Origin: a virus
Length of the DNA: 64,000 bases
Reading direction: 5' to 3' (one strand)
Virus record (IMG/VR): IMGVR_UViG_3300045988_163663
A program made the position numbers and the translations under genes. Positions 20,097 to 20,160 of the stretch are shown here, piece after piece. The notes under the pieces are model-generated. The model worked only from the letters and a program-made list of their open reading frames with translations. It was not told the origin of the DNA and made no database searches. Position 1 is the first letter of the stretch. Each line of letters opens with the position of its first letter.

Positions 20097-20160
20097 ATAT
20101 TAATTTTTGTAAATATATTATACTAAATAATTTGATTTTAAAAAAATTATTTAGTATAAT
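20097..20160. repeat. 64-bp perfect palindrome carrying a promoter-like TATAAT in both orientations
   Basis: 'gtaaatatattatactaaataatttgatttt|aaaaaaattatttagtataatatatttac' is its own reverse complement. Confidence 0.6.

Follow-up and report, generated by a model that had tools for sequence, protein, structure and literature searches.

Phages that read the stop codon TAG as sense are among the closest described systems to the locus analysed here. In the TAG-recoded gut phages of Borges et al. (bioRxiv 10.1101/2021.08.26.457843) and Kienbeck et al. 2024 (PMC10879173), the suppressor module consists of an amber-suppressor tRNA beside a structured RNA in a tRNA island. Promoters are unmentioned in the preprint of Borges et al., and the accessible part of Kienbeck et al. 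does not address the promoter of the suppressor tRNA; PMC10879173 names the trigger of the code switch in stop-codon-recoded phages as an open question.

The same arrangement is present in the window (the whole stretch of 64,000 nucleotides of viral DNA that was analysed), which likewise represents a code-15-type phage of the human gut. In the present work, the promoter and the leader of the suppressor tRNA are located for one clade, human-gut phages of roughly 185-190 kb, and the promoter is found to share its sequence with a long inverted repeat.

The inverted repeat and its plus-strand promoter

The inverted repeat occupies 20107-20170, 64 nt in total, as delimited by a repeat finder and by our own scan, and its two 27-nt arms are 100% complementary to each other (Table 1). 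The original prediction had placed a perfect 64-bp palindrome at 20097-20160, made of a string and its exact reverse complement abutting each other. The total span of 64 nt was correct, but the true repeat lies 10 nt further right, and its arms are split by a non-palindromic 10-nt spacer. In fact, the predicted left string is located at 20109, and its reverse complement occurs nowhere in the window; the arms therefore do not abut, and there is no perfect 64-bp palindrome. Two other elements of that description were confirmed, namely the phage -10 element in both arms (TAGTATAATATAT at 20113-20125 on the minus strand and at 20152-20164 on the plus strand) and the placement of the repeat between an ORF-free structured region and a GIY-YIG gene.

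Ranked by perfect stem, this repeat is the longest of all inverted repeats in the window. Over 50 shuffled windows, 25 of them first-order Markov shuffles and 25 shuffled in local blocks of 100 nt, the maximum perfect stem was between 9 and 14 bp, compared with 27 bp at 20107-20170. Folded as a single strand, the repeat reached -29.6 kcal/mol when treated as RNA and -20.9 kcal/mol when treated as DNA, with z-scores of -8.6 and -8.1, respectively; each arm contains 1 G or C, and the stem has 2 G-C pairs in 27. The repeat is genuine and greatly exceeds what chance would give. The second-longest inverted repeat of the window, at 621-675, has 25-bp perfect G+C-containing arms and a 5-nt loop; it lies just 5' of an ORF at 697-1689 and is not promoter-like.

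Table 1. Coordinates and diversity of the features in and around the inverted repeat
Feature	Position	Strand	Variable sites	Nucleotide diversity (pi)	Description
X2 structured RNA	19975-20105	+			closing helix of about 23 bp, 19981-20006 / 20080-20105
Left arm TTGTAAATATATTATACTAAATAATTT	20107-20133		4/27 in 15 sequences: positions 10 T/C, 14 A/C, 19 A/G, 21 A/G	0.066	repeats promoter positions -23 to +4 (approximate) in inverted orientation; from repeat finder and own scan
Minus-strand TATAAT without -35 box	20117-20122	-			TAGAAT in 12/14 relatives
-35 hexamer TTGATT	20132-20137	+			17 bp before the -10 box
Spacer GATTTTAAAA	20134-20143		4/10 in 15 sequences, two alleles	0.21	10 nt, non-palindromic; holds most of the -35 box
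Right arm AAATTATTTAGTATAATATATTTACAA	20144-20170		0/27 in 15 sequences	0	promoter spacer, -10 box, discriminator and first transcribed bases
-10 hexamer TATAAT	20155-20160	+			17 bp past the -35 box
Putative transcription start	20167	+			an A 7 nt past the -10 box; from standard sigma-70 promoter geometry
Conserved leader	20171-20286	+			runs straight into the suppressor tRNA where the endonuclease gene is absent
Leader hairpin element	20199-20276	+			basal helix AAGACAGT/ACTGTCTT, internal CAGCAAAT
Optional insertion, 846 nt	20287-21132	+			carries the GIY-YIG homing-endonuclease ORF
GIY-YIG ORF	20369-21127	+			four in-frame TAG codons
Amber-suppressor tRNA	21133-21204	+			anticodon CUA, read from the sequence; loop CTCTAAA; Rfam tRNA 38.9 bits
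Neighbouring RNA helix strands				0.06-0.07	
AT-rich linker				0.16	

Relatives of the locus were collected from viral, metagenome and genome collections as 14 contigs, mostly from the human gut and up to 193 kb in length (referred to below by L numbers). The retrieval patterns were the right arm, a right-arm 20-mer, the upstream structured RNA at 20061-20087 and, as a fourth, the adjacent upstream flank, which shares just 3 nt with the left arm. A viral scan with a suppressor-tRNA pattern yielded no contigs beyond those already found.

The spacer and the right arm together carry what, judged from its sequence, is a complete promoter of the phage's own plus-strand family; its form, TTGATT-17-TATAAT at 20132-20160, is that of a sigma-70/sigma-A-type promoter. 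Sites of the form TTGNNN-N17-TATAAT occur 14 times in the window, 13 of them on the plus strand, and most of the plus-strand sites have in common an A-rich spacer and ATAT past the -10 box. When scored with a matrix built from 12 other promoters of the window, with 20132-20160 itself left out, the site reaches 34.3 bits, which places it ninth among the roughly 128,000 positions of the two strands. The family profile fits the site beyond the hexamers, in agreement with the likeness to the phage's repeated promoter that had been proposed. In the relatives, the plus-strand promoter scores 32-37 bits, except for one at 19.4 bits that has a 1-nt spacer deletion. From the sequence we infer a start near 20167, as well as the strength of the promoter and read-through from upstream. 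With host RNA polymerase starting there, the suppressor-tRNA transcript would retain no more of the right arm than its final 4 nt and would therefore exclude the hairpin.

The closest paralog of this promoter in the window is TTGATTTTAAAAAAATTTTTTAGTAGAAT at 53124, with TAGAAT as its -10 box. The ORF driven by it (53224-53490) encodes an acidic product of 88 aa and has TAG in frame as its codon 20; making this product would require the suppressor. For the identity of this ORF, Pfam gave sub-threshold winged-helix hints and PHROGs no match, and AlphaFold on a 68-aa fragment of it reached a pLDDT of 51; to see in it the regulator of a feedback loop would be speculative. A second promoter-like class, which has no -35 box (TTTTTTTATAAAAATATTATATAATATATATAGAA), is found on the plus strand at 30535, 33277 and 44647. 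Two of these three sites (33277 and 44647) lie directly 3' of G+C-containing terminator hairpins, which suggests terminator-promoter modules, perhaps of a different temporal class.

The suppressor-tRNA unit and its genome context

ORFs of >=100 aa cover 51% of the window with TAG as a stop and 85% with TAG as sense, nearly all of them on the plus strand. TAG is read as an amino acid in this phage. The GIY-YIG motif is YIG-TAG-S in the window versus YVGQT in a paralog in L017, and TAG would therefore most likely specify Gln; with TAG read as Q, the Pfam GIY-YIG model matches the ORF at 20369-21127 with 30.7 bits. The original prediction had recognized the involvement of a promoter but missed the TAG recoding, the amber-suppressor tRNA as its target and the nature of the GIY-YIG gene as an optional insertion.

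A conserved leader of about 80-120 nt lies 3' of the promoter in all 14 relatives, and a tRNA with a CTCTAAA anticodon loop is found past the leader in each of the 12 relatives with readable downstream sequence. ARAGORN misses the tRNA(CUA) at 21133-21204 in the window; in L003, it reports a tRNA(cta) 117 nt past the promoter, and L007, L014 and L017 have such a call at the corresponding place. The GIY-YIG gene is located between leader and tRNA in the window and in L004, where the tRNA(CUA) comes after the endonuclease gene and not directly after the leader. In L020, the segment 20287-21132 is precisely missing, and the leader abuts the same tRNA as in the window; the segment is missing in L001 and L003, too. 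The endonuclease gene beside the repeat is therefore an optional passenger, and what the promoter serves throughout the clade is the amber suppressor. At least 4 tRNA(CUA) scaffolds, two of them with introns, are found behind one conserved promoter and leader, which suggests cassette exchange. Examples of scaffolds are those of the window (21133-21204), L003 (1215-1289), L017 (13144-13218), L012 and L016. Taken together, it is the tRNA scaffolds, the introns and the homing-endonuclease gene that appear to be exchanged behind a fixed promoter.

The hairpin element of the leader is seen three times in the tRNA island, on the plus strand at 18313-18431, 20199-20276 and 21213-21284. Its basal helix of 8 bp (AAGnnnnn/nnnnnCTT) covaries in the inner 5 bp (ACAGT, GCTCA and ACAC-type) and is accompanied by an internal CAGCAA(A)T motif, a variable AU-rich top and the end CTTG(T/A). 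The element matched no Rfam family. Two of the copies flank the suppressor tRNA: 20199-20276 is part of the leader, and 21213-21284 follows directly after the CCA of the tRNA. A theta (HDV-like) ribozyme was considered for the leader and trailer copies. According to PMC10879173, the theta layout, starting from the tRNA 3' end, is P1-P2-P3/L3 (containing CC)-P1'-GG-L4-C-containing J4/2-P2'. Compared by eye with the delimited sequences in the data file of that paper, the elements at 20199-20276 and 21213-21284 have no P3/L3 with CC and no P1.1 GG, and this candidate was rejected. A text search of the supplements of PMC10879173 for the core sequences of the leader and trailer hairpins found none, and Rfam gave no HDV-like matches at these elements.

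The window is AT-rich, with about 28% G+C and a positive GC skew throughout. Around the repeat lies a tRNA/ncRNA island with tRNA-Thr, tRNA-Pro, tRNA-Gln with an insert, tRNA-Tyr, RAGATH-33 and tRNA-Gly, together with a ROOL RNA at 18804-19396 (324 bits); ROOL RNAs sit near phage tRNA islands (PMC12286853). In the tRNA-Leu(UAA), the parts 21309-21341 and 22080-22131 are split after U34, the classic position of the tRNA-Leu group I intron, by a 738-nt insert (21342-22079) with an HNH endonuclease ORF at 21525-21971; the Rfam group I model did not match this insert, and the tRNA-Leu(UAA) is intact, without an insert, in L003, L009, L013 and L020. The anticodon of the tRNA-Gln(UUG) at 18494-18631 is interrupted (CTTT|...|GAC) by an insert of 63 nt, which is below the typical size of group I introns and holds the promoter-like motif TAGTATAAT; an intact 75-nt copy is found in L007 and others.

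Other genes of the window encode gyrase-like subunits, a ligase, an SLH-domain protein (27159-28223) and a vault-like protein. The latter (30764-33247, 827 aa) matches the shoulder domain of the major vault protein (Pfam PF11978, E = 7e-21) as well as a vault repeat domain, which is unusual in a phage. In a phage database search, the HNH gene was the sole match; the topoisomerase is about 40% identical to those of uncultured faecal phages. The SLH-domain protein and the type of promoter suggest a host among the Bacillota, and the SLH-domain protein points to one with a cell wall. L020 corresponds to CAMELE010000010.1, a 60.5-kb contig binned in a MAG labelled "uncultured Mollicutes bacterium"; this label is probably a compositional mis-binning, although it could be a hint to the host.

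The suppressor promoter is of consensus host type and of the same class as those of other tRNAs and of replication genes in the standard code, which argues for early suppressor expression driven by host polymerase. Such an arrangement fits a code switch based on concentration rather than on late activation, should the promoter be used as its sequence predicts. The natural alleles of one 64-nt element, perfect in the window and imperfect in relatives such as L007 (2 mismatches) and L005 (4 mismatches), provide a compact testable construct.

Arm conservation, upstream RNAs and competing explanations

The two arms differ in their conservation (Table 1). The invariance of the right arm holds in loci that were found with a pattern outside the right arm, and across the relatives the rest of this promoter class shows no less invariance, varying only in the -35-proximal spacer; promoter function therefore suffices to explain the right arm. 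The second spacer allele of the relatives is GAAAATTAAA, which has the -35 box TTGAAA in place of TTGATT. Measured against the right arm, the left arm has 1-4 mismatches, none of them compensated, in all relatives but one (13/14), and the arms are perfect in the window and L020 only (2/15 haplotypes), which have different spacer alleles and flanks. The outer 9 bp of the arms, TTGTAAATA, are invariant on both sides. Since the diversity of the left arm (0.066) is lower than that of the linker (0.16), the left arm is not clearly neutral, and the term "relic" may understate it. At all four polymorphic sites of the left arm, the complementary allele is A/T and the other allele is G/C. Perfect arms on two backgrounds could mean that complementarity was restored or selected; possible sources are reversion under AT-biased mutation, recombination and template switching.

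The flanks of the repeat are mosaic. Over the 106 nt immediately 5' of the repeat, L020 differs from L003, L006 and L009 at a single position, its spacer and leader are of the L005 type, and the distance of the relatives to the window shifts block by block. The hybrid structure of L020 and these blockwise distances indicate that the promoter region is a junction between exchangeable modules; with such flanks, there is no valid tree and no reliable ancestral state for the arms.

Two conserved, apparently structured RNAs are located between ROOL and the repeat: X1 (about 19480-19850) and X2 (about 19975-20105), the 3' strand of whose closing helix ends 1 nt before the left arm. Rfam 15 gave no match at E<=10 over 19400-20300, a range that covers X1 and X2. 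In an alignment of 13 sequences over 19449-20179, 15 of the 209 predicted pairs have double-sided changes, and many predicted pairs are invariant G.U pairs, possible on the plus strand only; the consensus fold of the upstream region is -132 kcal/mol on the plus strand versus -94 kcal/mol on the minus strand. By these predicted folds, X1 and X2 may be undescribed ncRNAs that accompany ROOL.

Based on the results presented above, the repeat is probably, though by no means certainly, a conserved plus-strand promoter joined to a nearby inverted copy of the 27 bp that make up its promoter-proximal part. Only the right half looks functional, and the left half has the appearance of a drifting inverted copy, a difference that makes a two-way promoter or a replication origin unlikely. 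The left arm was probably born of a fold-back or template-switch duplication, which is the simplest origin, and would now occupy the position of an UP element, -60 to -34 of the plus-strand promoter. In read-through RNA from ROOL/X1/X2, it would pair with the promoter sequence to form a 27-29-bp hairpin, and this hairpin may mark or process the 3' end of the ROOL/X1/X2 unit, thereby separating it from the suppressor-tRNA unit. Since the left arm is constrained like the neighbouring RNA helices, such read-through pairing would be the most plausible secondary role. To judge from the modelled folds, an RNA-level role of the repeat, as a 3' end, a processing site or an insulator, is plausible.

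A functional RNA hairpin could also be the main reason for the existence of the repeat, an explanation that we regard as rather unlikely but the strongest of the competitors. The repeat would then end the ROOL/X1/X2 read-through in a long double-stranded stem, where a cut by RNase III or another nuclease, or a stall of the polymerase, would insulate the suppressor unit, and the promoter would double as the 3' arm. Stems of at least 20 bp are substrates of RNase III. Each of the 11 distinct haplotypes that were folded gave a predicted plus-strand hairpin of -20.8 to -29.5 kcal/mol and a weaker one on the minus strand, and the consensus fold of the repeat is likewise stronger on the plus strand (-21.6 versus -14.9 kcal/mol). 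The diversity of the left arm equals that of the adjacent RNA helix strands; the hairpin begins 1 nt past the closing helix of X2; and AU-rich hairpins recur between the RNA genes, being present between ROOL and X1 and replaced there by analogous hairpins in L003 and L009. No other intrinsic terminator is predicted on the plus strand between the ROOL promoter and the repeat. However, the repeat itself does not have the form of a canonical intrinsic terminator: its stem is poor in G+C, and no U-tract follows it, the next bases being GATAAAGAG on the plus strand and AAAATTAAT on the minus strand. Of the four substitutions in the left arm, two are A-to-G and leave G.U pairs in plus-strand RNA only, an argument that comprises just these two substitutions, but the other two (T-to-C and A-to-C) break pairs without compensation, and the read-through that this explanation needs is an assumption.

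A role of the repeat in controlling the suppressor promoter appears less probable still. For the broad class of cis-regulatory devices, comprising a repressor operator, a supercoil-dependent cruciform and an RNA-level insulator, we see little likelihood; if it were true, the repeat would set the timing and amount of the suppressor, and thus the switch of the cell to TAG reading, and selection or arm-to-arm correction, not chance, would account for the arms being perfect in two divergent lineages. Slightly more doubtful is a regulatory switch in which the arms are half-sites of a dimeric repressor, or a cruciform hides the -10 box, so as to time the code change. The repeat does cover the -10 box and the start site from which the code-switch tRNA would be transcribed, its outer 9 bp are invariant on both sides, its arms are perfect on two divergent backgrounds, the phage encodes gyrase-like topoisomerase subunits, and the paralogous promoter at 53124 drives a small ORF that needs TAG read-through. 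Nevertheless, the arm mismatches (1-4 in 13/14 relatives) strongly disfavour cruciform extrusion, and with perfect arms confined to the window and L020, perfect complementarity is not maintained. The half-site is not enriched elsewhere in the window (8 observed versus 5 expected), no DNA-binding protein was identified (the Pfam winged-helix hints being sub-threshold and the structure model poor), and the invariance of the right arm is common to all promoters of the class. The divergent promoter pair that the original prediction had proposed, in which both arms fire and the minus copy gives antisense RNA over X2/X1/ROOL, is very unlikely. It found slight backing in the minus arm, which in the window has a perfect TATAAT and an identical discriminator and, at 21.1 bits, is the top minus-strand site, comparable to some plus-strand sites without a -35 box; moreover, TAGAAT serves as the -10 box at 53124. 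The minus arm, however, has TTTTTT at the -35 position, scores 21.1 bits against 34.3 bits for the plus strand and falls to 1.5-16 bits in the relatives. No gene is encoded on the minus strand, by their folds the upstream RNAs are plus-strand transcripts, so that a minus-strand transcript would be purely antisense, 13 of the 14 promoters are on the plus strand, and the left arm is not conserved like the phage's real promoters. The other function that had been suggested, an origin or partition-type site, is with a packaging site the least credible of all, to the point of being nearly dismissed. A long AT-rich inverted repeat in non-coding DNA that adjoins a promoter would suit such a site, but no iterons or tandem repeats lie within 700 nt of the repeat, and the cumulative GC skew rises monotonically through it without an inflection. 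Such a site, and a parS-type partition site in particular, is further contradicted by the single copy, by the half-site not being enriched in the window and by the free decay of one arm in the relatives.

Relation to known systems

In comparison with the suppressor modules of recoded phages, the present locus differs in that its hairpins do not have the theta layout and that at least 4 tRNA(CUA) scaffolds are found behind a single promoter and leader. For early promoters of the sigma-70/sigma-A type in AT-rich phages, the comparison was made with the phage's own promoters at 16613, 16860, 18438 and 18739. They have in common with the promoter of the repeat the TTGNNN hexamer, the 17-bp A-rich spacer and TATAAT, and, like it, they are on the plus strand, directly 5' of tRNA/ncRNA genes, and near-invariant. 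The promoter of the repeat differs from the family as its sole member in the window whose promoter-proximal half is inverted and duplicated immediately upstream.

Bidirectional promoters arising from -10 symmetry were reportedly described by Warman et al. in 2021. Such promoters resemble the present locus in having TATAAT-like elements on both strands close by in AT-rich DNA. Unlike in these promoters, the -10 boxes of the repeat are 32 bp apart and do not overlap, the putative starts are about 57 bp apart, and the minus copy has no -35 box and is not conserved.

RNase III processing hairpins are located between the genes of polycistronic phage and rRNA precursors, for example in the early region of T7. 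The repeat shares with them a stem of >=20 bp between RNA genes and the absence of intrinsic terminators. It differs in that its stem is almost purely A-U and is perfect in the window, and that its 3' arm is also a promoter; cleavage would here be hypothetical.

Quasi-palindromes are said to be products of template-switch mutation, in Ripley's model and in the work of Loytynoja and Goldman in 2017. Like the present repeat, these products combine a short inverted repeat and a small spacer with one arm that copies functional sequence. As an alternative to a template switch, G/C-to-A/T reversion in a genome of 28% GC could restore complementarity. The arms of the repeat, like those of template-switch products, are perfect in only part of the lineages.
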